Positions 14,429 through 60,840 of a stretch of DNA of 64,000 nt are shown piece after piece. Made by a program: the position numbers and the translations under genes. The DNA is from an uncultured bacterium (lineage in GTDB: Bacteria; Krumholzibacteriota; Krumholzibacteriia; JACNKJ01), in contig CAVOFT010000001.1 in the NCBI GenBank assembly GCA_963695095.1, forward strand, positions 2,912,001-2,976,000, given 5' to 3'. Within the stretch, counting starts at the first letter, position 1. Every line of letters starts with the position of its first letter. The notes beneath the pieces were generated by a model. It saw only the letters and a program-made list of their open reading frames with translations. It did not search any database and was not told the DNA's origin.

Positions 14429-15710
14429 TCAGGGGCCGTAGAGCACCTTGATCTCGCCGATCGTGGTGTCCTCCACCCGCCGCCATGAGGCCGGCACTCG
14501 CCTGGTGGTCGCGACATCCCGCCACTTCCAGAGCCGCCACTCGGTGCCGGCGCCCACCTGCACCGGGAAGCAGTGGACGATGGCGCGATCTTGCACGAGG
14601 AAGGCCGAGGGCCCGCCCGCGATCGTCGCTTTCAGGGTCATGAGGATGTTCGTGTCGTAGGCTCGCCAGAGCGCGTCCTCCGGGCAGGGATCCTCCCCCA
14701 CCTGGCCACCCGTAACCGCCTGCCAGTCCCCGGACCCCATGAAGTCCGCGGCGAGCGCCCTGAGACCGGCCAGGCCCTCGCCCGGCTCCTCGCCCAGCAG
14801 GGTTTCCGTGCAGGTCTGCTCGTCCTGGCAGGGCCAGGAGACCGGCAGGCTGGGGTCCGCCGCCTGATCGAAGTAGAAGCTGAAGGGCAGGTAGTGCTCG
14901 CCGTCCGTGGCCGCCTCGCTGCCGTCGTAGAGCAGGGCCGCGTAGCCGACGGGATCCAGGGCCTCCCAGGCGAGCAGGAGGTTCGCCATCAGGTGATCCG
15001 GGCTGTCGTTGGACAGGTAGGCCGGCGCCGGCGGGGCGAAGTAGGCCTTCACCTCGCTGAGGGACTTCTCCGCAGCGCCGCCTGGAATGGCGCCCGCGCG
15101 CCGGTCCGTTTCGTCCCACCACTTCCAGAGCCGCCACTCGGAGACGCCCTCCACCTCCACCGGCACGCACTGGAAGAGGAAGCGGCCGCTGATCGACAGC
15201 TGGTCGGTGTCGCCGCCACCGATTGCTGCTTTCAACGTGATGAGCATGCTCACCGCGTGCAGGCACCAGCGAGCTTCGGTCGGGAAGGGGTCGCCGGCGA
15301 TCTCGTCGCCGCCCATCGGGCCCCAGTCGCCGATGGGGCTGAGCTGAAGCGCCACCGATTTTATACCCGGCACTCCGTCGCCGGCCAGGCCGCTCATCAG
15401 GCGCGCGGCGCAGAGCGTGTCCCGGGACTTCACCCAGAACGCGGGCAAGTCGAGGCTGACGCTCTCCACGAAGTGGAACTTGAAGGGCGCATAGAAGGCG
15501 CCGTCCGTGGCGGTCTGCTCGCCTCCGTAGAGCAGGCTGGCGTAGCCGGCCGACGTCCATGGCCTCCCAGGCCATTTCCAGGTTGGCGATCAGGTTCTCG
15601 GGGCTCGTGTTGGGCAGATAGTCGGGCGGGCCTTGAACGCCTGCGGGATTGTCCCCCCCGCAGCCCGCGGCAAGCAGCGAACCCACGCAGAGCAAGAGTC
15701 CGAAGCGCAT
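14429..15710 (-). CDS. Lipoprotein, two-domain member of the paralogue array (frameshifted)
   Basis: MRFGLLLCVGSLLAAGC lipobox; two copies of the SP(E/D)xLxANL..AWEA.D...EWRLWKW domain; ends TTIGEIKVLYGP. Confidence 0.7.
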
Positions 15711-15729
15711 GTCCACCCCCCGCAACTCG

Positions 15730-16449
15730 TCAGTAGAGCGCCTTGATACTGCTGAAGGACGATTCCTCAGTCCGCGCCCGCGCCGTGGAGAGCGTCCGGG
15801 CCAGGGTGACGACATCCCGCCACTTCCAGAGCCGCCACTCGGTGTTCGCGCCCACCTGCACGGGAATGCAGTGCACGATCAGCCAGTCCTGGACGAGCCA
15901 GGCACTCGTGTTCTCGCCGTAGTTGCCCTTCAGCGAGATCAGGAAGTTCGTGGTGTAGCTCCGCCAGCGAGCATCCTCGGGATAGGGGTCCCCGTCCACA
16001 TCGGGGCCGATCGGGGCCGTCCAGACGCCAATGGGGTTCAGGTCCATGCTCACGGACCTTACGCCCGGCACCGCGTGCCCCTGGCTGTCCATCCCCTCCT
16101 CGCCGCCGAGGAGCGCCCCGGTGCGGACGAGCTCCCGATCGTAGAGGTCGATCACGGGCAGATCGGGGTCCAGGCTGCGATCGTAGTAGAACTTGTAGGG
16201 CGCGTAGGCTTGCCCGTCCGTGGCCAGCTCGATGCCGTCGTAGAGCAGGGCGGCGTAGCCCTCGGCATCCATGGCCTCCCAGGCGATGACGAGATTGGCA
16301 ATCACGTTGTCCGGGCTGTCGTTGGCAAGGTAGTCCGGCCCCTCGGGCGGGTTCAGCGTGCGCTCGGCGTCCTCGCCGCAGCCGGCGAGGAGGCCGCCGG
16401 CCAACGCAAGAACTGCAAGCGCAGCTCGCCACCTTCGCGATGTCTTCAT
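15730..16449 (-). CDS. Lipoprotein of unknown function (paralogue array)
   Basis: LLAGC lipobox; DSPDNVIANLVIAWEAMDAEGYAALL...EWRLWKWRD; ends SSFSSIKALY. Confidence 0.8.
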   Translation of the reverse strand: MKTSRRWRAALAVLALAGGLLAGCGEDAERTLNPPEGPDYLANDSPDNVIANLVIAWEAMDAEGYAALLYDGIELATDGQAYAPYKFYYDRSLDPDLPVIDLYDRELVRTGALLGGEEGMDSQGHAVPGVRSVSMDLNPIGVWTAPIGPDVDGDPYPEDARWRSYTTNFLISLKGNYGENTSAWLVQDWLIVHCIPVQVGANTEWRLWKWRDVVTLARTLSTARARTEESSFSSIKALY

Positions 16450-16458
16450 GCGCGCCCC

Positions 16459-17136
16459 CTAGTCGTCGGGTTCGAAGTAGAGCTTGAGACCGCTCAAGGA
16501 GAAGCGGACCGGCCCCGGTCTCTCCTCAGCTGGCTCCGGGCTGGGTGTCATCCCGGTGAAGTCCTCCCAGCGCCAGAGCCTCCATTCCTGCGGATCGCCG
16601 GCGTCCAGAGGCCGGCAGTAGAGCAGGGCAATGGCGGCGACGTGCAGGCCGTTGATCGCCGTGCCCTCGATCGGCTCGCGCAGCCTGACCAGCATCTCGA
16701 GGGCGTAGCTCCGGCGCAGCGTCCCGTCCGGCACGCTGTGGCCCTCCAGGTCCTCGGGGGTGACGGCCTCCCAATCACCCTCTGGGCTGAGCGTCATCGC
16801 GATCGAGGCGATTCCCGGCATGGCGATGTCGCCGATTTCTGCGCCGGGCTGGCCGCTGAGGAGACGCTCGGCGCAGTCAATCTCCTCCTCGTGGCCCCAG
16901 AGGTAGGTGAAGGTCGGATCATCCCGGAAGAAGTAGAAGTCGAAGCCCGCATCGAGCAGGGAGGTGTAGCCTGCGGCATCCATGGCCGTCCAGGCGAGGG
17001 CGACGTTCGCCACCACGCTATCTGGGCCGCTGTTCGCCCAGTAGCCGGGCGGCGTGGGAGTCAGGCTGTGCTTCGCATCCTCACCGCAGCCGGCGAGGAG
17101 CAGGAGGCTCAAGCAGAACAGCCGTACCCAGCGCAT
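16459..17136 (-). CDS. Lipoprotein of unknown function (paralogue array)
   Basis: MRWVRLFCLSLLLLAGC; GPDSVVANVALAWTAMD...EWRLWRWED; ends FSLSGLKLYFEPDD. Confidence 0.78.
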   Translation of the reverse strand: MRWVRLFCLSLLLLAGCGEDAKHSLTPTPPGYWANSGPDSVVANVALAWTAMDAAGYTSLLDAGFDFYFFRDDPTFTYLWGHEEEIDCAERLLSGQPGAEIGDIAMPGIASIAMTLSPEGDWEAVTPEDLEGHSVPDGTLRRSYALEMLVRLREPIEGTAINGLHVAAIALLYCRPLDAGDPQEWRLWRWEDFTGMTPSPEPAEERPGPVRFSLSGLKLYFEPDD

Positions 17137-17150
17137 CGAGTCCCCCCTTA

Positions 17151-17891
17151 CTACTCGGGCACGTAGAGCCACTTCACCTGTCCCCAAGTCGCATCCTCGG
17201 TCCGCTCGGGGGGATCGGGCACAGTCCTCCCGAGATAGTAGACGTCCCACCACTTCCACAGACGCCATTCAATGTCGCCACCAACCTGCACGGGAATGCA
17301 GCAAAAAGTGGCCTGGTGCTGCACGTAGAAGGCATTGATGCCCCAATCCGCCATCGCCTTCAGGGTAATGAGCGAGGCGTGAAAGAAGCCCCTCTGCTGA
17401 ACCGACTCCGGGCAGGAGTCGCCCGCTGCCTCTCCTCCCACCAGCTCCATCCATGCTCCAAAACCCGTAAGCTGGACGGCGAGCGACCTCACTCCCGGGA
17501 CCGGGTCGCCCTCATGATTCCCCGGCTCGCCCCCGAGCAGGGGCTCCATGCATGCCAACTCCTCGGCGCGGCTCAGTGTGTCGGGCAGCGTGGGGTCCAG
17601 GCTGCGGTCGAAGTAGAACTTGTAGGGCGCATAGGTCAGCCCATCCGTGGCCGGCTCGATGCCGTCGTAGAGCAGGGCGGCGTAGCCCTCGGCATCCATG
17701 GCCTCCATGGCGATCACCAGGTTGGCGATCACGTTGCCCGGGCTGTCGTTGGCGAGGTAGTCGGGTCCCTCGGGCGGGTTCAGGCTGCGCTTGTCCTCGT
17801 CGCAGCCGAGCGCAAGGGCCTGCAAGCAGGCGAGCGCGATCAGGAGGCCGCGAGCGCGGCTAGGTCTGGCGTTCCGGTTCCGGCAGTGCAT
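17151..17891 (-). CDS. Lipoprotein of unknown function (paralogue array)
   Basis: LALGC lipobox; DSPGNVIANL...EWRLWKWWD; ends ATWGQVKWLYVPE. Confidence 0.8.
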   Translation of the reverse strand: MHCRNRNARPSRARGLLIALACLQALALGCDEDKRSLNPPEGPDYLANDSPGNVIANLVIAMEAMDAEGYAALLYDGIEPATDGLTYAPYKFYFDRSLDPTLPDTLSRAEELACMEPLLGGEPGNHEGDPVPGVRSLAVQLTGFGAWMELVGGEAAGDSCPESVQQRGFFHASLITLKAMADWGINAFYVQHQATFCCIPVQVGGDIEWRLWKWWDVYYLGRTVPDPPERTEDATWGQVKWLYVPE

Positions 17892-18075
17892 GCTCCCGTC
17901 CCTTCGCCCGCGCCATCTGCACGTAGCTGACGAACGCGGCCCCCACGGCCATGCCGCTGAAGAAGAGCGTCAGCACGTCCACCAGGCGGGCTTCCTCGCC
18001 CACCACCATGATCGACGCGTAGAGCCCCGCCACCAGCGAGGCCAGCAGGCCGATCCCCGTGAGCTTTTTCCTCAT
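17860..18075 (-). CDS. Small two-TM membrane protein
   Basis: 71 aa with two hydrophobic segments; TGCTAGGGT -10-like element ends 7 nt before the ATG. Confidence 0.6.
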   Translation of the reverse strand: MRKKLTGIGLLASLVAGLYASIMVVGEEARLVDVLTLFFSGMAVGAAFVSYVQMARAKGREHALPEPERQT

Positions 18076-19785: not shown

Positions 19786-20806
19786 ATGTCACTGCGGGTC
19801 GGAATCATGGGCTTCGGCCGCATCGGCCGCAATCTCTTCCGACAGGCCGCCCAGCGGGACGATCTCGACATCGTCGCCATCAGCGACCTCGGCGCGCCGG
19901 AAGCCATGGCCTATCTTTTCGAATTCGACACGATCTACGGGCACTTCGACGGCAAGGTCCGCCTGGACGGCAAGTACCTCTGCGCCGGCCGCCAGCGCGC
20001 CCGCCTGCTCAAGGGCGTCGCGCCGGAGGACATGCCCTGGGACGCCTACAACGTGGACGTCGTCGTCGACTCCACCGGCGCCTACCGCGAGCGCGCGCCA
20101 GCTCGAAGGTCACCTGCGCTCGGGCGCCCGCCGCGTCGTGCTGAGCACGCCGGCCCTGGACGCCATCGACCGCACCATCGTGCACGGCGTCAACGACAAT
20201 ACCCTGCGCCCCGAGGACCGCATCGTCTCCTGCGCGAGCACGACCACGCACGCCCTGGCCCTCATGCTCAAGGTGCTCGACGAAGCCGTGGGCGTTCAGC
20301 GGGCGCTGATGACCAGTGTCCACGCCTACTCCAGCGATCAGAAGCTCTCGGATACGATCACGCCCAACCTGCGCCGCAGCCGCAGCGCGGCCCAGAATCT
20401 GATCCCCAACTGGACCTGGTCGCCAGGCGTCGTCGAGACGATGATGCCCCACCTCAAGGGCAAGATCGACGGCATGGCGGTGAACGTGCCCGTGCCCAAC
20501 GGCTCCAACCTCGATCTCAGCATGCAGCTCGGCCAGAGCCTGGACAAGGAGGCCGTCAACGCCATCGTGCACAAGGCGTCCGCCGGGCCCGCTCGGCCGC
20601 TATCTCGAGTACAGCGACGAGCCGATCGTCTCCAGCGACGTGATCGGCAACGCGCACTCGGCGGTCTTCGACTCGCTGGCGACGATCGCCCTGCCCAGCG
20701 GCCTCGTCAAGACGATCACCTGGTACGACAACGGCTGGGGCTACGCGGCGCGCATCCTGGACACGGTGATCACCCTGGGCGCCTTCGAGGCGGAGGAGGT
20801 GCAGCG

Positions 20807-20810
<4 letters not shown>
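19786..20810 (+). CDS. GAPDH-like protein lacking the catalytic Cys (two frameshifts)
   Basis: VGIMGFGRIGR, VHAYSSDQ, WYDNGWGY are present, but the active site reads SCASTTTHALA instead of [11 protein letters not shown]. Stop overlaps the next ATG (ATGA). Confidence 0.8.
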
Positions 20811-21809
<999 letters not shown>

Positions 21810-28796: not shown

Positions 28797-31700
28797 TCAT
28801 TCCGGCAGCCCCCGCAGTTCCGTCCGTCGCTTCCAGAGCTTGTAGATGGCGGGATAGACGAGCAGCTCCAGCAGGAAGGACGTGACCAGGCCACCGAGCA
28901 TGGGCGCGGCGATGCGCTTCATCACGTCCGCGCCCGCCGACGTGGACCACATGATCGGCAACAGCCCCACGAACGCCGCCGCCACCGTCATCATCTTGGG
29001 TCGCGCTCGCTTGACCGCGCCGTGGATGATGGCCTCATCGAGGTCGCGCACGGTCTTCAGGAGGCCGCCGTCCCGGTAGCGATGGTAGGAGAGATCCAGG
29101 AAGAGCATCATGAACACCCCGGTCTCGGCATCGAGCCCCAGAAGCGCAATCATCCCCACCCACGCTGCGATGGAGACGTTGTAGCCGAGGATGTGAAAGA
29201 GCCAGATCGCCCCGATCGCCGAGAACGGCACGGCCAGCAGCACCACGAGCGACTTGAAGATGGAACGCGTGTTCGCATACAGGAGCAGGAAGATGAGGAA
29301 CAGCACGGCCGGCACCACCAACCGCAGCCGCTCCTTGACCCGGATCATGTTCTCGTACTGCCCGCTCCACTGGATCACGTAGCCCGGCGGCAGATTCAAC
29401 TGCTCGCGCACGACCTGCTTGGCCTCGTCGACGTAACGCCCCGACGTCGCGGCCGGCGATGTCGACGTAGACGTAGCCGGCCAGGAAGCCGTTCTCATCG
29501 CGAATCATGGCCGGCCCGTTCACGAGACTCAGGTCGGCCACCTGCCCCAGCGGGACCTGCGCGCCGGTGGGGGTTGCGATGAGCACGCGCCGCAGGCGGT
29601 CGATGTCGTCCCGCAGCTCGCGGGGGTAGCGCACGTTGATCGAGTACCGCTCGCGCCCCTCGATCGAGGTCGACACGTTCTCCCCGCCAATCGCACTCAT
29701 GACCACCATCTGCACGTCGTCGATCCTGAGCCCGTAACGAGCAAGCTGATCGCGGCGCGGCTCGATATCGACGAAGTAGCCCCCGGTCACGCGCTCGGCG
29801 AACACGCTGCGCGTGCCGGGGATATCGCGGACCATGCCCTCGATGCGGGCGCCCAATTCCTCGATCACCTTGAGATCCGAGCCGAAGATCTTGATGCCGA
29901 CTGGCGTGCGCACACCGGTGGTGAGCATGTCGATGCGGGCCTTGATCGGCATCGTCCAGGCGTTGGTGACGCCCGGGATCTGCAACGCCTGATCCATCTC
30001 GGTTACCAGCTCGTCCCATGAGATGTGATCCGACCAGATCGGCCGGACCAGGGGTTTGAGCCAGTCGGGCAGCCAGGACGAGTACCAGCGCTTCTTCGAA
30101 CGCCACTCGTCGGTCGGCTTCAGGACGACCGTGGTCTCCATCATGGAGAGCGGCGCGGGGTCGGTGGAGGTGTCGGCACGCCCTGCCTTGCCGAATACCC
30201 GCTCCACTTCGGGGAAGGACTTGAGCACCCGATCCTGCGTCTCCATGAGATCCTGGGCCTGCGCCACCGAGATGCCGGGCAGCGTGGTCGGCATGTAGAG
30301 AATCGTGCCCTCGTTGAGCGGCGGCATGAACTCCGACCCCAGCCTGAAGTAGGCGGGAATGCTCACTGCCACCAGCAGGAACGCCGCGGCGATCACCGTG
30401 CGCGGGCGGCGCAGCACGAAGCGGCAGGCCGGCTCGTAGACCCGAAAGATCGTGCGGCTGATCGGATGGCGTTCTTCGGCATGGTAGGTGCCGACGAGCG
30501 CCCCGGAGGCCAGCTTGGCCAGGAATCTCGGCTTGAACCGATAGGGATCCATGCGCGTGAACATCATCCGCAGGGCCGGATCCAGCGTGATGGCCAGACA
30601 CCGCGGCCAGCGCCATGGTGAGGTTCTTGGACCAGGCCAGCGGCTTGAACAGCCGGCCTTCCTGATCCACCAGCACGAAGATCGGGATGAACGCGACCGC
30701 AATGACCAGAAGCGAGAAGAAGACAGAGGGGCCGATCTCCTGCAGCGCCTCGAGACGCACCTTGTGATAGTCCCCTTTGCGCCCGCCCGCTTGCCACTCG
30801 TGGAGCTTGTTGTAGGCGTTCTCCACCTCCACGATCGCGCCGTCCACGAGCACGCCGATCGAGATGGCGATGCCGGCGAGCGACATGATGTTGACGGTGA
30901 TGCCGAAGTAGTAGAGCGGGATGAAGGTCAAGAGCACCGAGATCGGGATGGTGAGGATGGGCACGACGGCCGAGGGGATGTGCCAGAGGAAGAGCAGGAT
31001 CACCAGGGACACGATGATCATCTCGATCAGCAGTTCGTGCTTCAGCGTGTGGATGGCATGCTCGATCAGGTCGGCGCGGTCGTAGGTGGTGACCATCTTC
31101 ACTCCCGCCGGCAGCGAGGGCTCGACGTCATGCAGCTTCTGCCTGCACCCGCTCGATCACGTTGAGCGCGTTCTCGCCGTGGCGCATGACCACGATGCCG
31201 CCCACGTGGTCGCCGAGGCCGTCCAGGTCCGACACCCCGCGCCGGATCTCGGGCCCCAGCTCCACGCGGGCCACGTCCCTGATGAGGACGGGCACGCCGT
31301 CGGCGTCCGTCTTGAGGACGATCTGTTCCAGGTCGCCGATCGAGCGCGAGTAGCCGCGCGCCGCGCACCATGTACTCGGTCCCGCCCCATTCGATCAGGC
31401 GGCCGCCCACCTCGTTGTTGGAGGCGCGGATCGCCTCGATCACATCGCCGAGTGGCGATCCCGTAGGCCGCGAGCCGGTTGGGATCCACGGTGACCTGGT
31501 ACTGCTTCTGGAAGCCGCCGATCGAGGCGACCTCGGCCACTCCCGGCACCGACTGCAGCGCGTAGCGCAGCGTCCAGTCCTGGAAGGAGCGCAGCTCGTC
31601 CAGCGAGTGCGTGCCGGCGCTGTCCACCAGCGCGTACTGGAAGACCCAGCCCACGCCGGTGGCATCGGGACCCAGCTCCGTCGCTACCCCCTCGGGCAGC

Positions 31701-32058
31701 CGGGACTGGATCTTGGAGAGGTACTCGAGCACCCGCGAGCGCGCCCAGTAGATGTCGGTGCCGTCCTCGAAGATCACGTACACGTAGGAGAAGCCGAAGT
31801 CGGAGAAGCCGCGAATCGCCTTGACCTTCGGCGCGCCGAGCAGCGCGGTGATGATCGGGTAGGTGACCTGGTCTTCGATGATGTCGGGCGAGCGGTCCCA
31901 GCGCGAGTAGACGATGACCTGCGTGTCGGACAGGTCCGGCAGCGCATCCAGGCGGATCCGCTGCAGCGTGCACGCCGGCGAACACGCAGAGAGCCGCGAA
32001 TCACGAAGAGGACGAGCAGGCGGTTGGTGGCGGAGAACGCGATGATGCGCCGGATCAT
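28797..32058 (-). CDS. cusA: CusA/CzcA heavy-metal RND efflux permease (several frameshifts)
   Basis: [78 protein letters not shown]. Confidence 0.9.
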
Positions 32059-33428
32059 GGCTGGCTCCCGTCGCCCATCTCCATGCCCGGCATGGAGCTC
32101 GTCGTCGCGCCGCCGGCGGCGTTGATGGCGCTGCGCAGCCGCGACTCGGAGTCGAGCAGGAAGTTGGCGCGCACCACCACCTGCTCACCGGCGGCGACGC
32201 CGGCGCGCACCTGGACCTGCCCATCGGTGCGCACGCCGAGCGTCGACCTCACGCGGCTCGAAGACGCCGGCGCTGGTCGCCACGAAGACGACCTGCCGCG
32301 AGACCCGAGTCGAGCACGGCATCGTCCGGGATGAGCACGCCCTCGGCGGACTCGAGGCCCAGCTCGACGTTGGCGTACATGCCGGGTTTCAGGGCGAAGT
32401 CGGCATTGGCCATCTCCACGCGCACCCGGATCGTGCGGGTGGCGGCATCGAGAGTCGGGTAGATGTAGCTCACGCCTGCCCGTGTTCCTGAACGCGGGGT
32501 CGTAGGGCAGGATGACGTCCACGGCCTGCCCCAGGCGCACGAGCGGCGCTTCTTGCTCGTAGATCTCGGCGTCGATCCAGACCCTGGCCAGGTCGGAGAT
32601 CGTGAACAGCGTCATGCCCGGCTCGACGCGGCTGCCCGCGAACACTCCCTTGGTGGTCACGAAGCCACTCGCGGGAGCATCGAGGGTGACAATGCGCTGC
32701 GCCTCGCCGCCTGCGTCCAAGCGATCCAGGAGCGTCGGCGGGACGGCGAAGGACAGCAGCCGCTCGCGGGCGGAGGCCAGGAGATCATCGGCCCCTTGCC
32801 GCACCTCGGGCAGGCTCGACTCCGTGAATCGAGCGGCGGCCCTCCGCGCGCGCAGGTACTCCTCCTGGCTTGCCACCAGCTCCGGCGAGTAGAGGCCGAG
32901 GAGCGGATCGCCCTTGCGCACGAGCTGACCGGTGAAGTCCACGAAGAGGCTCTCGACCCAGCCGGAGACGCGCGTATGGACTTCGTGGGTGCGGGTCTCG
33001 TCAGCGACCACGAGGCCCACCGCCCGCACGCTCCGCGAGAGGCGACCCTGGATGGCGACTGTCGTGCGCACGCCGGCGAGGGCCACCTCTTCGGCACTGA
33101 CGCGCACCGTGCTGTAGCCGGGAACGGCCGCTGCCTGCGCGCCCCCCGGTCCTGCCGCGCCATGCCCACCAGAATGGGCCATCGCCGCGGCGTCTTCACC
33201 GTGCGCCATGGTCGCGCCCGATGAGTCCGGTTCGGCCTTGGGGATCGGCACGAGATCCATGCCGCAGATCGGGCAGTCGCCGGGGCGATCCGCCACGTAG
33301 GTGGGATGCATCGGGCAGTGATACTGCTGCGTGGAGTCCTGATCGCCATTGCCGCAAGAGACCAGCCAAAGCAAGGACAGGGTCAGGACCAGAACAGCGA
33401 TCCACCGAGAGTAGTGGCTGCGGCTCAT
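32055..33428 (-). CDS. cusB: CusB-like RND periplasmic adaptor (frameshifted near 32250-32480)
   Basis: Lipobox-like LVSC, YHCPMHP...[49 protein letters not shown]. Confidence 0.85.
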
Positions 33429-49070: not shown

Positions 49071-49236
49071 GGCACCTCCGTTTCGGGATGCGGGAAAGGC
49101 AGCGGCGGCGCCAAGGCTGGCGCGCCGCGGGGAAGATGGCCTACTCTGGCACGGCAGCGGGCAGAGGGTCAATCACCGGAATTGCCATCCCGAGCGGCGG
49201 CGGCTATGCTGAAGTCGGGTGTCGGAAGGGGGAATC

Positions 49237-49887
49237 GTGCCAAATTGCCTCCTCCGGGTCGGCTTGGCCGGGATGCTCGTCGCAGCGAGCTTCCAGTGCG
49301 CCCCCGCAGCGGGCAGCGTGCGCTTCGCCGCCTTCGGCTGGGAGAGCGGCGGCCTCGGTCCCGCCGCGCTCGGCGATACGCTCTGGATCGCCGGCCTTGT
49401 CGACAGGGTCTTTGCCGATAGCGGGATTCCCTACTGGCCCGGCAGCCGCGAATACACGGTGCTCCTCCGCGATCTCATCTCCTGGGGCGAGCAGGAGGCG
49501 GACATTTACGACTTCTGCCTTTACTCCGGCGGTCGCCTGGAGATCTACGCGGGATTGGAGCACGACGCGGACTACCTGGCGACGAACGCCGGGGCGGAGC
49601 CGCCCGCAGCCTTCGGCAATGGGGATCTCTGGCTCTCCGCCGCCATCGTGGACTTCCGCTTCATCCGCGGCGACTATGGGCGGAGCTTCTACTGCCGGCT
49701 CGAGTTCGATGGCGGCCTGGCCCTGCCCTGGTTCCGCCGTCCCGGCGACTGCGCTGCCGGGTGCGATGCGGCTGCGGGCGACTACCTGGCGGCGGGCTAC
49801 ACGCTGGCGTTCGACGAGGCCTGGATCTGGACCCACTCGGGAACGGACATGCCCGACAGCTTCAGTGCGATCAAGTCGCTCTACTGA
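49237..49887 (+). CDS. Secreted hypothetical protein with short C-terminal motif
   Basis: Signal-like N-terminus; YSGGRLEIY; ends DSFSAIKSLY. Confidence 0.7.
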   Translation: MPNCLLRVGLAGMLVAASFQCAPAAGSVRFAAFGWESGGLGPAALGDTLWIAGLVDRVFADSGIPYWPGSREYTVLLRDLISWGEQEADIYDFCLYSGGRLEIYAGLEHDADYLATNAGAEPPAAFGNGDLWLSAAIVDFRFIRGDYGRSFYCRLEFDGGLALPWFRRPGDCAAGCDAAAGDYLAAGYTLAFDEAWIWTHSGTDMPDSFSAIKSLY

Positions 49888-49888: not shown

Positions 49889-51121
49889 TCAGTACAGCGA
49901 CTTCACCCGACCCCAGCTCGATTCGGCCGTGGCGGTCGCGCAGGCCGCGCAGCCCGCTCCGTAGGCGCCGATACCGAGCGGGAGGCAGGGGCTGTCCGCG
50001 CAGAGCGCAAAGTCGCCACCCGGCTCATCGCAGAAGAGCGGATTTGCGATCAGGGTGCCGGTTTCGCTGCCCACCAAATCGTCGCCGCCCGTGTTGCCCC
50101 ACACGCAGGTCTGCGCGAAGGCGACTGTTCGAGCTCGCCGCGATATCGAAGGTGGCGCTGCCGTGATTGAACGCGATCAGGTTTCGGGTCACGTCGAGGA
50201 TTGCATGGCCGTAGGCGATACCTGCCCCCGCCGGGGCCGTGTTGTCGGCGATCGTGTTCTCGATCAGGTTCGCCGCTGCCGTACCAGACGTAGATCCCGC
50301 CGCCATCGGAGAACCACTGGGTGCCGGCATCATTGAAGGCGATCTCGTTGCCACGGAGCGATGGCCTGGGAGTTGTAGTGCTCGAGGGCCAGCCCACCGC
50401 CGTGGCCGTCGACGGCATTTCCCACGATTGCGCAGTCGCTCACCTCGCCTGAGAAGCACGTCAGTGCTGATACCGCCGCCGACGAAGTCAGCCACGTTGT
50501 CGGTAATCCTGCAATTCAGCAGGCGCGCGCTGCCTTGCATGTAGACGCCACCGCCCCGGCTCTCGGACCGCCGCGGAGAGGGCCTGACAGTGGTGGATAC
50601 CGCTGTTCTCCGCCACGCTGCCGGAGCCGATGTAGAGGCCGCCGCCATGGTCGGCCGCGCACCAGGCGATGACGCAGTTGTTGATGGTGACGCCCACGAA
50701 AGCGCCCAGCCATCAGCCCACCGCCGTCGGTGCTGTAGGCGCCGACATTGTCCCGGGCGTCCGCACCAGTGATGCGGCAGTAGGCGAAGCTCGAGCCGCC
50801 ATCCGCTCCCGCGGGAATCTCGATGTGCCCCCAGGTCGTGCCGGCGATGTGCGGAACAAAGAGGATGGAGTCACCCGCTGTGCCCGCGGCCTGGATGAGA
50901 CCCTCCACGGCGAGCACGTAGTTGCCGTCAAAGCGGATCTCGACGCCGGGCTCGATGCTCAGCGTCTCACCAGCGGGGATCCTGATGTGCCCGGCGACGA
51001 CGTAGGGCGAGCCCGCCGCCGTCCATATCCCGGAAACATCGCCGGGACCGACCGGCGTCGCTGCGGCTGGGGCCGCGGCAATCAGAGTAAACAGCGCTAC
51101 GAGAGCGAATCCCTTCATCAT
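49889..51121 (-). CDS. Secreted beta-helix protein (several frameshifts)
   Basis: MMKGFALVALF..., SGIWTAAGSPYVV, GGG repeats, NPLFC...DSPCLP..IGAYGAGC; ends ESSWGRVKSLY. Confidence 0.7.
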
Positions 51122-51312
51122 CCCCACCTCCCGGATAGGTTCCGAAGCTCCTGCTGCTCCATTTTGACAGCGTGGCCGGCGTCGATCAACCCCGATCCGC
51201 GTTGCCGATCTTCGAATCGATGATTCCGGTAAGCGATGCTGAATCCTCCGGCCGTCGGTGGGCATCGAAACCGCACTGGAAGCAAATCCCCGATTCCGAA
51301 CCGGAGGTCCCC

Positions 51313-52387
51313 ATGCGTCGCTCCCTATCGCCCTTGGTGCTGGGCCTGGCCTTGCTCGCCACGGCCAGCCAGGCGATCGCCGTTCCCCGCACCATGCTCT
51401 TCGAGAAGTTCACGAACACCGGTTGACCCGCCTGCGCATTGGCGGAGCCAATCTTCTTGCAGTTCGTCGACGATCACCCGACCGACACGGTGGCCATCCT
51501 CTGGCATGCGAACTTCCCCTACCCGGTCGATCCCTTCTACACCCACAACATCACGGACAACCAGGGCCGCATCGATTGGTATGCGATCGCCAGCGTGCCC
51601 AGGATCAAGGTGGACGGGATCACGTCCTCGACCAGCTACTGCCGGGATGACCACCAGCTACAACAATCGCCTGGCGGTGCCGACCGATCTCAGCCTCGAG
51701 ATCACGGGCAGCTGGGACCCGCAGACCCGCGCCGTCTCCGTGACCGCGACGGCGACGACGACGAGCGCTCTCACCAACGATTACGTGCTGCACATCGTGC
51801 TCACCGAGAGCGAGGTCTACTACGAGGCCACGAACGGCATCGACTGGCACGAGCACACGATGCGCGACGCTCTGCCGAGCTTCGCCGGCTCGCCGGTCAC
51901 CTTCAGCGGCGACTTCCCGCAGACGGCCGTGGTCACGGCCGACTTCACGCTGCCCATGGGCGCGCCGCCGCACGAGTACCGGCCCGAGTTCTGCAAGATC
52001 GTCTGCTTCGTGCAGCAGGTGAGCACGAATTCGGGCTTCCGCGAGGTGCAGCAGGCGGCCGCCGTCGCGCTCACTGATCTTGCGCAGACCCCGGTGGCCG
52101 AACTGGCCGCGGCGCCCAGCCTGGGGCAGCCCTACCCGAACCCCTTCAACCCCGAGACGGCAATTCCCGTGCGGCTCGCCGCACCGGGCGATGTCGCCTT
52201 GCGGATTCTCGACGTGGCTGGACGGCGCCTGCGCACGCTGCAGGAAGGTCATCTGAGCGCCGGCAGCCATCAACTCCACTGGGACGGCCGCGATGACGCG
52301 GGCCGGCCCGTGGGCAGCGGCGTCTACCTGGCCCAGCTCATCCACGCCGGCGGTCGCGAGAGCCGCCGGCTCGTGCTCCTGAAGTAG
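51313..52387 (+). CDS. Omp28-like thioredoxin-fold protein with in-frame TGA (probable Sec, UPAC) and FlgD/T9SS-like CTD; frameshift near 51640
   Basis: MRRSLSPLVLGLALLATASQA...LFEKFTNTG-TGA-PAC...WH..FP...DPFY...R..WY....VP.IKVDG; HIVLTE, HEHTMRD, VCFVQ, PYPNPFNP; GGAGG RBS. Confidence 0.8.
51438..51452 (+). promoter_or_regulatory. Candidate bacterial SECIS hairpin
   Basis: ATTGGC-GGA-GCCAAT begins after an 11-nt spacer following TGA 51424-51426; loop starts with G. Confidence 0.55.
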
Positions 52388-53431: not shown

Positions 53432-55069
53432 TCAACGCGCGCGGAGGCGAAGCACCTTGACGCCGCCGCGAGCGGCAGCGTCCATTCGCTCCAACAGGTA
53501 GATGCCCGTCGGCGTGGGCCGGCCGCTTTCATCGCGACCGTCCCAGACGCCGCGCCCGCCCGGCAAGGCCAGGCGCCGGACGCAGCGGCCGCGGATATCG
53601 AAGACGGCCACGCTCGCGTCGCCGCCCCGCGCGCCGGGGGCGGCCAGGCGCAGCTCGTTCACGAAGGGCTGCGGCCACGCGACGAGCGCCGGCGCCGCGG
53701 GCAGCGGGTCCACGGCCGTCTCGTCCTCGGCCACCGCCGTGCTAAAGAGCGCCGCCGGCGCGGCGACGGGCCGGCGTTCGACCCTGCCACTGAGGTCTGC
53801 GGCTTCCAGGTAGTACTCGATCTCGGCGCCCGGCGCCTGCGCGGGCAGCCAGGCGCGCAGGCTGTCGCCGCCGATCGGCACGAGGGCGCTCAGCGCAAAG
53901 TCCGTCTCCCCCGCCAGGCGCCAGTGGAGCGCGCAGCCGGCGAGATCCAGCCCCGCCTCGCTGCGGTCGTCGACGAAGGCCGCTACGGGCCAGGCCATGG
54001 CGGCGGGAATCTCGACCGGCGGCGGCGCCGCGTCCACGCGCAGCATGCCGCGGTCGAAGATGCCCATCGCGCGGCAGTGGAGGGCGTCGTAGTAGTACCA
54101 GGAGCCCGTGAAGCCGATCACCTCGTAGCCGGGCATGGCATCGCGGTAGAGCTGCAGCGCCGGCGCATCGCCAGCGCACTGGAAGAGCGGCACCAGCACC
54201 TTCTTGCCGAGGATGAGCGCGTTCGTGTAGGCGGCCACGCCCACCCCGCCGATGGGCCCGCAGTCGACGCGCAGCACGCGCAGGGGATTGCCATAGCAGC
54301 TCGTCAGGCCGCCCAGGAGCGCGGCGTTCTGTTCCACGTAGGGCGCATCCGGGTGGCTCGGGGAGAGCTGCTTGACGATCACCGTCTCCTCGTCGAGGAA
54401 CTTCGCCACGCAGTCGATGTGCTGGATGCCGTTGCCCTCGGTGTTGGGCAGCACGACGAGTTCGTCCACGCCGCACCAGCTCGCCAGTGCGGCGCGGAAG
54501 GCCGCTTCGCTCAGGTGATCGTTCTCGCTGAGCTGGGCCTCGGAGCAGAAGGCGCGGCCATGGCCGTCCCACATGATGTTGCCGCCGGTGAGATAGAAGG
54601 GCGGCTGCCAGAGCGGCTCGCCGCCCAGGTAGGCGGCGAACTGGGCCGGCGTGTCGTCGTCCTGCTCGTAGCCCGTGGTCTCGCGCGGAATCCAGGGATA
54701 GCCATCGAACCAGGGGTCGAGGATGCCCCAATCCCCGCTCCCATCGAAGAGGCACTGCGGGCCCCAGTCCCGGCTCCAGTGCGAGTAGCTGTCGGCGATC
54801 ACCCACCGGACATTGGCCATGTTGACGCCCCAGGCCGTGAAGTTGCCCGTGGCGCCGGCGACCTGGGTGGAAAGGATGACGACGTAGAGCTTCGCGTCCT
54901 CGGCCATCTCGGCAACCAGCGAGCCCGGAATGCCCAGCGGCCAGCGGATCATGACCCCCTCCACCGGCTCCCACTCGGCGCACATGCGCACGGGGCCGGG
55001 CGGCTGGGCCGCGGCGAGGGCGGGCAAGAGCAAGCAGAGCGCAGCGGCGGCGAGACGCTGGCGCGGCAT
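53432..55069 (-). CDS. Secreted agmatine/peptidyl-arginine deiminase (PPAD-like) with CTD
   Basis: AEWEP, WSRDWGP, GGNIMWDG, HIDC, YTNALI, DALHCRAM; AWPQPF...TGIYLL. Confidence 0.85.
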   Translation of the reverse strand: MPRQRLAAAALCLLLPALAAAQPPGPVRMCAEWEPVEGVMIRWPLGIPGSLVAEMAEDAKLYVVILSTQVAGATGNFTAWGVNMANVRWVIADSYSHWSRDWGPQCLFDGSGDWGILDPWFDGYPWIPRETTGYEQDDDTPAQFAAYLGGEPLWQPPFYLTGGNIMWDGHGRAFCSEAQLSENDHLSEAAFRAALASWCGVDELVVLPNTEGNGIQHIDCVAKFLDEETVIVKQLSPSHPDAPYVEQNAALLGGLTSCYGNPLRVLRVDCGPIGGVGVAAYTNALILGKKVLVPLFQCAGDAPALQLYRDAMPGYEVIGFTGSWYYYDALHCRAMGIFDRGMLRVDAAPPPVEIPAAMAWPVAAFVDDRSEAGLDLAGCALHWRLAGETDFALSALVPIGGDSLRAWLPAQAPGAEIEYYLEAADLSGRVERRPVAAPAALFSTAVAEDETAVDPLPAAPALVAWPQPFVNELRLAAPGARGGDASVAVFDIRGRCVRRLALPGGRGVWDGRDESGRPTPTGIYLLERMDAAARGGVKVLRLRAR

Positions 55070-56209: not shown

Positions 56210-57352
56210 ATGCCGCGCAGCACCCGGTTCCACGCCATCTTCGGCGTCGCCTTGGCCATCTTCATCCTCATCGCCCTCGATGCTGCCGCCCTGGCGCGCA
56301 GCGTGCGGGTGAGCCCCGAGCCCAGCGCTCTGCAGATCGCCATCGCGCTGAGCCTCGAGGGCGACACCCTGCTCCTCGCGCCGGGCCTCTACTGCGATGC
56401 ACCCATTCCCACCAGGGTCGGCCCGACGACGCTCGTGATCGAGCGCCCGCTGATCATCCTCGGCGAAGGCGGCGGCGAGGGCGAGGATGAGGCCATCCTG
56501 CACGGGGGTCTGGCGGCGCGCGTGCTGCTCATCGAACCCGGGGCGGCGGGCACCGTGATCCAGAATGTCTCGCTGCGCGGCGGCCTCGCCTGGGCCGGCG
56601 GGGCCATCTACCAGCGCGCGGCGCTGCTGCGCCTGGTCGCCTGCAATCTGCGGGAGAACATCGCCCGCACCGACGGCGGCGCCATCTACGCCGAAGCGGG
56701 CAATCTGGCGCTCGAGGCCTGCGTCTTCGACGGCAACCGCGCCGGCGAGCGCGGCGGGGGCATCTTCCTGACCAACGCCGCCGCCCAGCTCACTGCTTGC
56801 ACGCTGATCGGCGACGACGCCGCGGCCGGCGGCGCGCTCTATCTCGGCCCCGGCGGCCAGGGCCAGCTGAACTCCTGCCTCGTCATCGACGGCAGCGCGG
56901 ACCGCGGCGGCTGGGCCTGCGTGGAGGATGGCTTCCTCTCCGCTCGGCAGTCCACCTTCTTCGGCCTGCCCGGCGAGCCCGAAAGCGGAGGCATCGCCCT
57001 GCGCGGCTCGCTGGGCAGCGCCTTCATCGAGACCAGCATCCTCTGCTTCGCCGGTGCGCCGGCCCTGAGCGGCCTGCGCGACGGCGCCGCCATGCTCGTC
57101 TGCTGCAATGTCTTCGGCAATCGCGGCGGCGACTGGACGGGCATGCTCGCCGCGCAGGCCGCCGAGGGCGGCAACCTCTCGGCCAATCCGGGCTTCTGCG
57201 GCCTGCAGCGCGGCAATTTCAGTCTCGATCCCAGTTCCCCCTGCGCGCCGGCGAACAATCCCTGTGGCGAACTGATCGGCGCCCTCGACGTGGGCTGCGT
57301 GGACAGCCTGCCCGATGACGCCAGCGCTGCGCGCTCGGCGCGGGAGGACTAA
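56210..57352 (+). CDS. Secreted beta-helix protein (array member 1)
   Basis: GGAIY repeats, GNLSANPGFC...SPCAPANNPCGELIGA; lacks the terminal motif; TGCTATGCT at 56166-56174. Confidence 0.75.
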   Translation: MPRSTRFHAIFGVALAIFILIALDAAALARSVRVSPEPSALQIAIALSLEGDTLLLAPGLYCDAPIPTRVGPTTLVIERPLIILGEGGGEGEDEAILHGGLAARVLLIEPGAAGTVIQNVSLRGGLAWAGGAIYQRAALLRLVACNLRENIARTDGGAIYAEAGNLALEACVFDGNRAGERGGGIFLTNAAAQLTACTLIGDDAAAGGALYLGPGGQGQLNSCLVIDGSADRGGWACVEDGFLSARQSTFFGLPGEPESGGIALRGSLGSAFIETSILCFAGAPALSGLRDGAAMLVCCNVFGNRGGDWTGMLAAQAAEGGNLSANPGFCGLQRGNFSLDPSSPCAPANNPCGELIGALDVGCVDSLPDDASAARSARED

Positions 57353-57436
57353 CCGCCGCTGGCAGCGCGCCTGAACGCTGCTATACTCTCCCGTGTGCGT
57401 GGATTCAGAGCGAGCGACCCTAGCGGGGAGGGCGAG

Positions 57437-58549
57437 ATGTCGACTTCCACGATCGCGGCTGCCTGTGCGCTGCTGCTGGCCGTCCCGGCCGGCGCGGTAG
57501 TCATCCACATTCCGGGCGATCAGCCCACGATCCAGGCGGGCATCGCGGTGGCCGCGCCGGGCGACGTCCTGCTGATCGCTGCGGGCAGCTACACGGAGCC
57601 GATGCAGGAGACCCCTGCCTTCCCGAGCATGCTCGTGCTCCCCGCGGGTGTATCGCTGATCGGCGAGGGCGAGGTGATCCTCGACGCTGCGGGGGCAGGC
57701 CGCCTCATATCCGTCGCGACAGGCTGGCCCGGGCAACCCGTCAATCGGCTCGAGAATCTGGCCCTGCGCCACGGGTTCACGCAGGGCAGCGGGGGCGCCG
57801 TCTACATTCCCTATGCCGCCGTCGACATGCTGAACGTCCGCTTCGAGGACAATGAGGCGCTCGTGGCCGGCGGCGCATTGCGCTGCGACTTCGGCACGAT
57901 CACGATCGAGGACTCGCAATTCACAGGCAACCACGCCGAGGACGGTGGCGCCATCTCGAACGGCAGCAGTGGCTTCAACGTGCGGCGTTGCACCTTCACC
58001 GGGAATGCCGCCTCACCCGGCGGAGGTGGCGCCTTCCACTTCAAAGGCGAGCAGACAAGCCAGATCGAGGAATGCCTGGTAGTTGATTGCCTGAGCCGCT
58101 GGGGCGCCTGGTTCAAGCTGGAGGACCATGTCAGCCTGCTTGTCATCGGCTGCAGCTTCATCGGCCACGGCACGTCCTACCTGAACACCGGCATCCACAT
58201 CTACGATTACTGCTCGCTGACGCTCAACAACTCGATCCTGACCGGAGCCATCGGCCGCGCAATCACCTTCCACCAGAACGTCGCCACGAATTTCGATGAG
58301 TGCAACGACATCTGGGGCAACGGTCTGGATTATCCGACCGAGATCGCCCACTGGCTGGGTACGAACGGCAACTTCAGCGCCGATCCCCTGTTCTGTGCTC
58401 CGAGCGGCAACGACTTCCACCTGAGCACGCTATCGCCTTGCGCGCCCAGCAACAACGACTGCGGTCTGCAGATCGGGGCCTTGCCGGTCGCCTGCGAGAC
58501 CACGGCCTCCGCGAACGCGAGCTGGAGTTCCGTCAAGTCGCTATACTGA
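57437..58549 (+). CDS. Secreted beta-helix protein (array member 2)
   Basis: IPGDQPTIQAGI, GNFSADPLFC...SPCAPSNNDCG; ends ASWSSVKSLY. Confidence 0.8.
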   Translation: MSTSTIAAACALLLAVPAGAVVIHIPGDQPTIQAGIAVAAPGDVLLIAAGSYTEPMQETPAFPSMLVLPAGVSLIGEGEVILDAAGAGRLISVATGWPGQPVNRLENLALRHGFTQGSGGAVYIPYAAVDMLNVRFEDNEALVAGGALRCDFGTITIEDSQFTGNHAEDGGAISNGSSGFNVRRCTFTGNAASPGGGGAFHFKGEQTSQIEECLVVDCLSRWGAWFKLEDHVSLLVIGCSFIGHGTSYLNTGIHIYDYCSLTLNNSILTGAIGRAITFHQNVATNFDECNDIWGNGLDYPTEIAHWLGTNGNFSADPLFCAPSGNDFHLSTLSPCAPSNNDCGLQIGALPVACETTASANASWSSVKSLY

Positions 58550-58644
58550 TTCGACGCATGGCCAGCGGTCACCCGAAATCGCGTGCTGCACGCGCCGACG
58601 CCGGCTGCTATAATCGTATGCAGCTACTGCTCGGGAGGTGTGTG

Positions 58645-59712
58645 ATGACTCGTTCCATCCTGGCCCTGGCCTGCTTGTTCGCCATTTTCGTGGCCGGTGC
58701 CGCCTCGGCGGCCATCCTCAACGTCCCCGGCGACTACGCGACGATCCAGGCGGCCATCGATGCCGCGGCTGTGGGCGACGAGATCGTCATCGCCGCCGGC
58801 AGCTATGCGAGCGAGGCCTTCATCGACCACGGCGGCTTCACGATCCGCGGCACGGGCGAAGTGATCCTGGGTCCGAGCAGCGGCGGCATCGCCTTCATCT
58901 GCTCGCTGGACGCCGACTACCTGCCCGTCATCTTCGAGCACCTCACCTTCGAGGGCTTCGCCATCGGCATCTCCTATGACATGGATTTCGCAGCGGAGAT
59001 CCGCGACTGCGTCTTCCGCCTGAACGAGAACGGGATCCACGGCTGCGGCGACGGGCCTCTGATCCTGCGCGACTGCCTGTTCGAGGACAACCATGCCACC
59101 TGGGCCGGCGGCGCGATCAGCAGCTGCGGCGCCGTGCTGGACGTGGCCGACTGCGTCTTCCGGAACAACACGGCAGGCGTCATGGGCGGCGCCATCTTCT
59201 CGGACACGCCCTTCGGCCCGCGCAGCTTCTCGAACTGCCTCTTCGTCGGCAACGACGCGCCCAAGGGCGCCGCCGTGCAGGTGGAGTTCGGCGGGCCCGT
59301 GGACTTCAGTCGCTGCACCTTCCACGCAAACGGCCGCAGCGGCGCCGCCGTGCTCAACGTCGAGATGGCCTCCAGCACCCTGAACCTGAGCCGCTGCATC
59401 GTGACGGGCAGCCCGGGCAGCGCCTTCTCCTGCACCGATGGCGGCGTGCTGAACATCAGCTGCACGGATGCCTGGAACAACGCGGAGGGCGACTGGACCG
59501 ACTGCGCCGCCGGCCAGCTCGGCGTGGACGGCAACTTCAGCGCCGATCCGCTCTACTGCGATCTCGCCAACGGCGACTTCGCCTTCGACGCCGACTCGCC
59601 CTGCGCGCCGGGCGGGAATGCCTGCGGCGTCACGATCGGCGCCTACGGCGTGGGCTGCGGCCTCACGGCCGCCGAGGAGAACAGCTTCAGCGCGGTGAAG
59701 AGCCTCTACTAG
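58645..59712 (+). CDS. Secreted beta-helix protein (array member 3)
   Basis: VPGDYATIQAAIDAA, GNFSADPLYC; ends NSFSAVKSLY; TGCTATAAT at 58606-58614. Confidence 0.8.
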   Translation: MTRSILALACLFAIFVAGAASAAILNVPGDYATIQAAIDAAAVGDEIVIAAGSYASEAFIDHGGFTIRGTGEVILGPSSGGIAFICSLDADYLPVIFEHLTFEGFAIGISYDMDFAAEIRDCVFRLNENGIHGCGDGPLILRDCLFEDNHATWAGGAISSCGAVLDVADCVFRNNTAGVMGGAIFSDTPFGPRSFSNCLFVGNDAPKGAAVQVEFGGPVDFSRCTFHANGRSGAAVLNVEMASSTLNLSRCIVTGSPGSAFSCTDGGVLNISCTDAWNNAEGDWTDCAAGQLGVDGNFSADPLYCDLANGDFAFDADSPCAPGGNACGVTIGAYGVGCGLTAAEENSFSAVKSLY

Positions 59713-59769
59713 CGTCCGCGGGCGCGCGCAGCGGGCTCTCGCGGAAGGGACCGCCCAAGGGAGGAGAGC

Positions 59770-60840
59770 GTGCGCGTTCACTTGTTTGCGCTCTACGGCA
59801 TCCTGGCATTGGCCTCGGCCGCAGCTGCGGCGGAGATCCACGTGCCGGGGGATCAGCCCACGATCCAGGCGGCCATCGATGCTGCGGCCCCTGGCGATGA
59901 GATCGTCATCGCCGCGGGCACCTACAGCGTGCCCGCGCCACACATCCTTCCCCCCGGTGGCCTCCGCTTCCGCGGAACGGGCGAGGTCCAGCTGTCCGGC
60001 AGCACCGGCGCCTTCTTTGAAGTCATCGATCCGCAGAACCTGGATCTGTTCCGCTTCGAGAATCTGCGCTTCCTGGGCAACCCCGTCGGCATCCGCACGC
60101 CCGTCCCCGGCAATCCCTTTCCGGAGACCCGCCTCGAGGTGGAGGACTGCGCCTTCGTCGACAACGGCGTGGGGATCAGCGCGCGCAACGCCGGGCTGTT
60201 CAATCTGAGGAATTGCCGCTTCGAGGGCGGCAGCACCGGCGTCTATCTGCTCTTCGCCTGGATGTTCGCCGAGGATTGCGTCTTCATCGGCCCCGAAACC
60301 GGCATCCGCGCCGACGACGGCCTGGCGGACCGGGTGGTCGAGCGCTGCCTCTTCGTGGACTGCCACGGTTTCTACGGTGCCGTGGCGATCGATGTGCCCG
60401 CCCAGTTCGCGCTCATCCAGTGCACTTTCGACCGCTGCGGCGCGGCGAACGGCGCGGCGATCTCTTCGATCGCGGCGGCGACCATCGTCCTCGACCGCTG
60501 CATCGTGGTCAATGGCCCCGGCCTGGCCTTCGGCTGCATTGGCGGCTTCCCCAATCTTTTCATCATCACCTGCTCCGACCTGTGGAACAACGCCGGCGGC
60601 AACTGGCACGCTTGCGCCTACGGTGGACCCGAGGAGAACGGCAACTTCTCGGCGGATCCGCTGTTCTGCGCCACCGCTCGCGACGACTACTCCATTGACG
60701 CCGACTCGCCCTGCGCCGCGGCCGGCAACACCTGCGAGGTCATCGTCGGCGCCTTCGACGTAGCTTGTGGCACCACCGGCGTCGGGGAGCTGCCACCAGG
60801 GGACAACACCAGCTTCAGCGCAGTGAAGAGCTTCTACTAG
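59770..60840 (+). CDS. Secreted beta-helix protein (array member 4)
   Basis: VPGDQPTIQAAIDAA, GNFSADPLFC; ends TSFSAVKSFY. Confidence 0.8.
   Translation: MRVHLFALYGILALASAAAAAEIHVPGDQPTIQAAIDAAAPGDEIVIAAGTYSVPAPHILPPGGLRFRGTGEVQLSGSTGAFFEVIDPQNLDLFRFENLRFLGNPVGIRTPVPGNPFPETRLEVEDCAFVDNGVGISARNAGLFNLRNCRFEGGSTGVYLLFAWMFAEDCVFIGPETGIRADDGLADRVVERCLFVDCHGFYGAVAIDVPAQFALIQCTFDRCGAANGAAISSIAAATIVLDRCIVVNGPGLAFGCIGGFPNLFIITCSDLWNNAGGNWHACAYGGPEENGNFSADPLFCATARDDYSIDADSPCAAAGNTCEVIVGAFDVACGTTGVGELPPGDNTSFSAVKSFY

Follow-up and report, generated by a model that had tools for sequence, protein, structure and literature searches.

Tagged C-termini in a 64-kb window

The window analyzed here is a stretch of 64,000 nucleotides (contig CAVOFT010000001.1, positions 2,912,001 to 2,976,000) from an uncultured bacterium of the Krumholzibacteriota, the phylum that also dominates the Atlas cluster closest to the main PorV of its genome. 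In an initial annotation made from these letters alone, a short C-terminal tag was noticed on secreted proteins of unrelated families and put forward as a candidate sorting signal. All nine C-termini quoted there are present, and a loose regular expression applied to the six frames of the window returned 10 matches, namely the nine ends and one internal copy in the open reading frame at 14429. The ten elements are:

14438–14464, minus strand: tag core plus 2 residues; lipoprotein family, tandem two-domain frameshifted gene (lipobox-bearing start at 15710)
15038–15064, minus strand: degenerate internal tag copy between both domains of the 14429 gene
15733–15759, minus strand: tag core, C-terminus of lipoprotein 15730–16449
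16474–16500, minus strand: degenerate tag core with a 4-residue tail, lipoprotein 16459–17136; below the cut-off of 14 of the scoring matrix described below
17163–17189, minus strand: tag core with a 3-residue tail, lipoprotein 17151–17891
49858–49884, plus strand: tag core, secreted protein 49219–49887 without a Pfam family
49892–49918, minus strand: tag core, frameshifted beta-helix/Cys-module gene with its signal peptide starting at 51121
58520–58546, plus strand: tag core, beta-helix and Cys-module protein 57437–58549
59683–59709, plus strand: tag core, beta-helix and Cys-module protein 58645–59712
60811–60837, plus strand: tag core, beta-helix and Cys-module protein 59770–60840, whose linker starts like that of a long-tailed paralogue

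The core is followed by 0–4 residues in the nine window carriers. The carriers were rightly read as exported, but the open reading frames at 14429 and 49889 are 3' pieces of frameshifted genes, with the lipobox or signal peptide starting at 15710 and 51121. The element is short and C-terminal as described, although its conserved stretch covers about 15 residues instead of the roughly 10 first claimed.

Genome-wide census of the tag

The genome holding the window (G000; 3.64 Mb, 2 contigs, 93.5% complete) was searched with a regular expression in six frames, giving 68 matches. Of these, 47 lie exactly before a stop codon and 60 within 4 residues of one, compared with 0.9 and 4.2 expected by chance (p ~1e-72 for terminal placement). 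Enrichment at C-termini, one of the checks proposed with the initial annotation, is thus borne out. Among 3001 genes called with a home-made codon-model caller, the last 13 residues match in 58 proteins, whereas shuffled termini gave 0.01. A 17-column position-specific scoring matrix with a carrier cut-off score of at least 14 identified 64 called carriers, 6 terminal matches in uncalled frames and 7 internal matches. The carrier consensus is T-[APG]-[TV]-E-x-x-[ST]-[WF]-[SG]-x-[IV]-K-[SA]-L-Y-stop, with K in 62 of the 64 carriers and 0–3 residues beyond the consensus end.

The claim that several unrelated families are involved held up, as the 64 carriers form 41 sequence clusters after removal of the tail. 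The majority have no Pfam family and are small non-enzymatic domains. Export signals were found, using our own heuristic, in 55 of the 64 carriers, in 79 of 114 proteins with a long type IX C-terminal domain (CTD) and in 843 of 2543 other proteins. Inspection recovered a signal for eight of the remaining nine carriers, four having an in-frame signal clipped by the gene caller and four a signal in another upstream frame. Carriers are also small, with a median of 226 aa and a maximum of 460 (60 measured) against a median of 641 for long-CTD proteins (85 measured), a difference that persists when tails are removed (p 7e-18). Bodies of at most 350 aa make up 55/60 carriers and 14/85 long-CTD proteins, and carrier medians were 226, 226 and 257 aa in three lineage samples. 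The smallest include mini-proteins of 50–80 aa that are barely more than signal peptide and tag (G000 C1 736712–736864 and 2770680); in a 166-aa protein (C1 501400–501900) the tag stands directly behind the signal peptide.

The element is a portable tag at the C-terminus of exported proteins from many unrelated families, and judging from its sequence the 15-residue tail most likely serves as an export or anchoring signal not described before. No described sorting-signal model matched it: none of 63 tails had a match in NCBIfam at E<=1, and the 2 weak Pfam matches were unrelated. A PDB sequence search with the tag gave 0 matches, and no description was found in the openly readable papers and preprint texts searched, literal motif strings included. 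The tag is real and apparently undescribed; it works most like a type IX CTD, without being a member of that class.

The tag and the long CTD occupy equivalent positions

The window also holds relatives with the long CTD, or with neither tail, for comparison:

38993–42079, minus strand: same beta-helix and Cys module, followed by an FN3-like domain and a long FlgD_ig/Por_Secre_tail CTD
56210–57352, plus strand: member of the beta-helix/Cys-module family with neither tail
11946–14219, minus strand: C25 peptidase with a long CTD, TIGR04183 above cut-off
9114, 18169, 51647, 52477 and 53432: other long-CTD genes

The same beta-helix and Cys-rich module had been reported to end in either tail, and the swap proves to be in register. 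The module's last Cys is followed by 18–24 residues in tagged proteins and 102–105 in long-CTD proteins, and both tail types begin T-[AG]-[VAT]. Other members of the family, such as the protein at 56210–57352, have neither tail, so the fold does not depend on the tag. No protein in G000 combines tag and long CTD (0/64 carriers and 0/114 long-CTD proteins identified by pattern), in agreement with the claim that the two never co-occur, but Poribacteria-type proteins hold both. The idea that tag and CTD are interchangeable accordingly survives as an in-register swap behind the same Cys module and is otherwise too strong, because carriers form a distinct small size class and the tag precedes the long CTD in Poribacteria-type chains.

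Both tails commonly share the linker noted earlier. T[AGP][VTA] is found in 40/64 short and 72/114 long carriers (backgrounds 2% and 7.5%), but the lipoprotein carriers are without a T[AG]V linker. A PorU-site pattern, [TEDN] followed by [GAS], stands at one fixed position in 34 of the 64 carriers (background 5%), and a looser PorU-type cleavage pattern, a sequence pattern alone, in 37/41 members of the single-copy family described below; lipoprotein carriers lack the PorU-type pattern. The PorU cut site is described as T/E/D/N before G/A/S (PMC10202324), and a PT/GI cleavage motif is given in section 3.5 of PMC11969387. A near-invariant Lys lies 4–5 residues from the end of the tag. Type A CTDs have a near-invariant Lys too, although section 7 of PMC10994853 assigns the main role of the conserved Lys elsewhere. 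Long tails in the window match the type A models (TIGR04183/PF18962), unlike the tag. The fold of the long CTD resembles the CTDs of PorU, mirolase, PorZ and NucA (fold search: Z 11.2, root-mean-square deviation 2.3, 91 aligned). Relatives within the lipoprotein family have tandem tag copies, extensions of at least 10 residues, or no tag. Homology of the tag to the spacer before the G000 long CTDs was considered and rejected, the two being unrelated beyond three columns.

Metagenome contigs searched with a Poribacteria-type pattern yielded at least 120 distinct matches, of which 119 lie within 14 residues of a stop codon and 1 runs into a long CTD; among the 120 listed, two belong to named Poribacteria, and one of these two has a degenerate tag. 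Of 109 long-CTD homologues of the protein that runs into a CTD, 18 (strict) to 29 (loose) carry the tag, a share inflated because the query itself contained the tag. In this cis form the tag stands between linker and CTD, with its W twelve residues before a YPNPFN-like motif at fixed distance. AlphaFold models it as a beta-hairpin (pLDDT 82–90, from an alignment with only 2/23 rows tagged), which lies outside all matches of the fold search and carries no information on fold novelty.

The tag co-occurs with type IX machinery lacking GldM

A stop-anchored pattern, which also accepts TGG as a stop, matched in all 181 genomes of the phylum of the window, with 1–83 matches each against 0–5 in a reversed control and several genomes of one family at control level. 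In the phylum of an Eisenbacteria-labelled genome the pattern was present in 58/61 genomes, and in that of a Latescibacterota-labelled genome it was patchy and mostly at control level. GTDB contigs added at least 124 loci labelled Eisenbacteria, Krumholzibacteriia, Latescibacterota, Zixibacteria, Ignavibacteria, Kapabacteria, Calditrichia and others; 123 proteins from these loci form 62 clusters, and most end in R or K. One locus, in a Bacteroidia-labelled genome (L101:1446–2033), encodes a multi-pass membrane protein ending in a perfect tag-like sequence that is probably convergent.

G000 encodes SprA, a PorU directly upstream of PorV, and 11 PorV-family matches that mostly adjoin a long-CTD gene. 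GldM had no match in G000, using a model that matches in 37 Bacteroidota genomes, and PorZ had none at E 1e-12. PorU is found in 178/181 genomes of the phylum. Across phyla SprA was found in 45/48 genomes selected by tag; these represent 50 of the 124 loci and were picked with a preference for other lineages. SprA was missed in G362, which has 18 tag matches and 9 PorV-family matches, and in two genomes with Polyangiaceae and Phycisphaera labels, whose 1 and 3 tag matches lie on short contigs that are probably mis-binned. Profiling against type IX genes, as suggested at the outset, hence shows the tag co-occurring with SprA, PorV and PorU in the genomes tested, all from outside the Poribacteria. 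The statement that no characterized machinery is known for the tag was literally right; its distribution nonetheless points to the SprA-PorV-PorU system.

A conserved single-copy FN3 and tag protein

One family, with a signal peptide, one FN3-like domain and the tag, accounts for 19 of the 123 outside carriers. The Atlas lists it as hypothetical and without Pfam family; records under the names Melioribacter roseus (L129) and Rosettibacter primus (L132), both cultured species, belong to it. Across 41 diverse members the tag residues T, W, G, K and F do not vary (5/9 columns) against a mean identity of 27%, and the body is the domain that precedes PF18962 in 24/34 longer homologues. A fold search returned a generic FN3 and a PDB sequence search weak FN3 matches only. 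AlphaFold places a low-confidence helix at residues 124–134 (pLDDT 54–64). A predicted complex of the main PorV (24–374) with the mature protein, SprA left out, scored 0.09 (mark 0.32), a result that speaks neither for nor against binding.

The distribution of this family was examined in 151 genomes from the phylum of one tag-positive genome (G182), 120 of which have SprA and 37 GldM above cut-off. Among the matches listed, the protein is present in at least 56/83 SprA-positive, GldM-negative genomes, in 0/37 with both and in 0/31 without SprA (full-length members in at least 55 genomes from the best 150 of ~750 matches, and in 1 from a second search covering 50 of the remaining genomes). As these groups are clades, the counts represent a handful of events, not 151 tests. 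One SprA-positive, GldM-negative genome counted as lacking the protein has a probable orthologue with a diverged tail (L286; G205:C1:2606473–2606865), which keeps the spacing of W, hydrophobic residue, L and F, but not G or K. G000 and five kin had no full-length member among the matches listed.

Zixibacteria-labelled and other genomes encode a second conserved small carrier, placed between rex and an anti-sigma operon. Rex-linked loci include L070:1623–2033, L078, L104, L125 and L133, where the operon encodes an anti-anti-sigma factor, an anti-sigma kinase and a membrane phosphatase. G000 has the operon (C1 2535196–2538312), with three tagged genes 4–6 kb downstream, and lacks the rex-linked carrier family. 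The genes flanking both conserved single-copy families have housekeeping or regulatory roles (maf, pyrR-like, rex, anti-sigma). In the M. roseus membrane proteome as reported in PMC5492636, Maf is MROS_2733, and MROS_2732 and MROS_2731 were detected while MROS_2734 was not; by gene order in L129, MROS_2734 is the likelier tag gene, the mapping to MROS numbers being unproven. With single-copy carriers in the M. roseus and R. primus records, the question is testable in cultured organisms.

Comparison with known sorting signals

The closest known system, which has a PorV shuttle and a PorU sortase, is the type A CTD of type IX secretion (TIGR04183, PF18962; here the FlgD_ig-like PF13860 form), which like the tag is C-terminal, portable and found on Sec-exported proteins of many families. 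Both have a linker of T, then G or A, then a hydrophobic residue, a near-terminal Lys, common upstream domains, and genomes with SprA, PorV and PorU. Unlike the type A CTD, the tag spans 15–20 residues in place of a 70–80-residue beta-sandwich, has no motifs B or D and no match to a hidden Markov model, sits on small cargo, tolerates tandem copies, may precede a type A-like CTD, and was not found in the GldM-positive genomes searched. Type A systems have the PorKLMN/GldKLMN motor; the lack of GldM in G000 holds for its long CTDs as well.

Short CTDs of Prevotella intermedia are described as shortened type IX signals with the cleavage motif of the long CTDs of the same genome, and as retaining a sheet of three strands that bears motifs B, D (GxY/GxN) and E and invariant glycines (PMC11969387). 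When the tag consensus and alignment were set against that published description, the tag had none of these features and was several times shorter. Type B and C CTDs, as described in PMC12618676 and PMC10202324, are a precedent for one translocon serving several signal classes through dedicated shuttles, but these are folded domains of ~100 residues, and tag carriers have no adjoining cognate shuttle gene. Tripartite CTERM signals (PEP-CTERM/exosortase, GlyGly-CTERM, MYXO-CTERM) are described as lying near the C-terminus in many copies per genome, with signature residues, on unrelated bodies with signal peptides (bioRxiv 2023.06.07.544157), all of which applies to the tag. In contrast to them, the tag has no arginine cluster, and 64/64 carriers have 0 predicted transmembrane segments after residue 45. 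No PEP-CTERM-like tail was found by our own pattern among the 3001 G000 genes. G000 has one exosortase, in a polysaccharide locus (C1 3397471–3398337); an exosortase was rejected as reader since 5/5 other tag-positive genomes have none, a test that covered exosortase and not the rhombosortase or CPBP families.

Two further precedents were considered. The BamA beta-signal is a strand of alternating hydrophobicity whose last residue is aromatic and which belongs to a beta-barrel protein; it was rejected, as the moment of the tag at 160–180 degrees is below that of other C-termini, no barrel families occur among carriers and most relatives end in R or K. Amphipathic membrane-targeting helices have a high helical hydrophobic moment and bind lipid, and are taken up below.

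A sorting signal for small cargo and its alternatives

We give about an even chance to the tail being a minimal two-part sorting signal, for small cargo, of a type IX-like system without the GldM/PorM motor, as its sequence and distribution suggest. A small carrier would be exported by Sec, after which the core, [ST]-[WF]-[GS]-x-[IV]-K-x-L-[YF], would fold on binding a system component (a PorV-family shuttle, the SprA cavity or PorU). The small cargo would then pass the outer membrane, and PorU would cut between T and [AG]V, releasing a peptide of ~14 residues and leaving the body free or anchored. Lipoprotein carriers would have kept the core alone and stay lipid-anchored and uncut. In its favour are the slot and register common to tag and long CTD, the PorU-like linker, the type IX genes of G000 and other tagged genomes, the distribution and FN3 body of the single-copy protein, the fixed spacing of the cis form, the fold of the long CTD and the near-terminal Lys. 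Export signals, portability, small size, linker and co-occurrence are observed, while recognition, passage across the membrane and cleavage are inferred.

A number of observations weigh against this model. The main one is that Kamke 2014 reported, for partial Poribacteria genomes, type A-like domains and no Por structural genes (PMC3909097). Type A CTD recognition is described as burying ~1850 square angstroms on PorV and SprA, with the fold being read rather than a motif (PMC10994853); nine residues cannot bind in the same way. The tag in cis before a CTD, its repetition in tandem and its extension by at least 10 residues mean that it is no simple substitute for the CTD and needs no free C-terminus. 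Pro occupies P1' in 11/64 carriers, and tag linker and long-CTD spacer share 3 columns only (hhalign probability 0.5%). No orphan shuttle was found in G000 or Ignavibacteria, and 27/83 SprA-positive, GldM-negative genomes have no recognizable single-copy member among the matches listed. Related genomes are not independent, so all co-occurrence counts rest on few lineage events.

A broader version of the model, possible but doubtful, makes the tag an ancient, peptide-sized address, older than and separate from folded CTDs, that is read by a receptor of motor-less type IX systems in at least six lineages related to the Fibrobacterota-Chlorobiota-Bacteroidota group and in Poribacteria. The single-copy FN3 and tag protein would be a housekeeping substrate or a missing machine component, lost when Bacteroidia gained the GldLM motor. 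If this is correct, small proteins of these bacteria have their own dedicated path to the cell surface.

Alternatively, the core could be a retained docking peptide that binds a common envelope scaffold, periplasmic or on the surface, and stays on the mature protein with a dockerin-like function; Sec would suffice for export, or the long CTD would direct it in proteins that have both tails. This would accommodate the tandem copies and tolerated extensions of the lipoprotein family, the internal copy at 15038–15064 and the copy behind the signal peptide at C1 501400, tag and long CTD in one chain, a single-copy family tail far more conserved than its body, and the prevalence of small non-enzymatic carriers without Pfam family. 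We nevertheless consider docking unlikely: the tag lies C-terminal to a linker common to cleaved CTDs, where a cut would remove it, no scaffold gene recurs among the neighbours, and docking alone does not explain the restriction to SprA genomes.

Quite unlikely, in our view, is a signal read by some other, undescribed exporter or peptidase whose range of lineages simply coincides with that of motor-less type IX secretion. The strict small-cargo bias in three lineage samples, an architecture unlike any CTD, the reported lack of Por structural genes in the partial Poribacteria genomes (PMC3909097) and the 27 SprA-positive genomes without the tag protein among the matches listed would all fit. 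Against these stand the common linker and the cis fusion, which tie the tag to the CTD, and the lack of a candidate, since neither exosortase nor the M6-like protein discussed below tracks the tag.

A self-sufficient amphipathic helix, which would need no protein reader to tether small proteins to a membrane face, is very unlikely. The tag would presumably be comparable to MinD/FtsA-type targeting helices, and the low-confidence helix predicted in the single-copy protein, the hydrophobic positions i, i+3, i+6 and i+7 kept even in the diverged tail, and the similar end of the L101 membrane protein are consistent with it. Yet the helical hydrophobic moment is 0.32 compared with 0.33 for other C-termini, fixed W-G/S and Lys across phyla exceed lipid-binding needs, lipoprotein carriers are anchored already, and the cis form is predicted as a beta-hairpin, albeit with few tagged rows. 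That the tag is a structural part of one fold, or chance, is almost certainly wrong: one lipoprotein family supplies four of the window carriers as paralogues and one beta-helix family another four, but both families have members without the tag, carriers form 41 clusters in G000 and 62 outside, and terminal placement refutes chance.

To our knowledge, every type IX signal described is a folded domain and every short C-terminal sorting tag described is membrane-anchored; a soluble signal of 15 residues would form a class of its own. If the tag is such a signal, ~2% of G000 genes and thousands of 'hypothetical' proteins are envelope cargo. It bears on how type IX systems that have no GldLM motor choose their substrates, and for surface display a tag of 15 residues would be of practical use.

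Rejected readers and neighbouring genes

Two further candidates for the reader of the tag were rejected. Orphan shuttles did not fit, as the G000 PorV paralogues mostly stand beside long-CTD genes and the unpaired barrel of Ignavibacteria is PorQ in a quick tree, with PorZ present. An M6-like protein of the porU-porV operon occurs in 25/27 tag-negative genomes and is missing from 15/56 tag-positive ones. In G000 (C1 2153380–2164249) this M6-family protein follows porU-porV and carries FG-GAP repeats and a CTD; its HExxH is intact, whereas NF052323 is described as inactivated. The same gene order occurs in Ignavibacteria loci L244–L246, and the family is found in 66/151 genomes, none of them GldM-positive above cut-off. 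Elsewhere in G000, PorV paralogues paired with large CTD proteins lie beside TonB/ExbBD-like genes or TonB-dependent receptors (C1 1819488–1830452, 2393980–2402067 and 3032453–3042987), neighbours that might supply energy to a system in which GldLM is absent.

Apparent frameshift breaks, from assembly error or decay, occur in the window at 14429–15710, 49889–51121, 51236–52387, 28797–33545 and 19786–21809. A gingipain-like C25 peptidase (11946–14219) and a Porphyromonas-type peptidylarginine deiminase (53432–55069) each have a long CTD. A 620-aa secreted protein (9626–11488), upstream of a 144-aa long-CTD protein, matches the Bdellovibrio mosaic adhesive trimer model NF053851 at its N-terminus, below cut-off.

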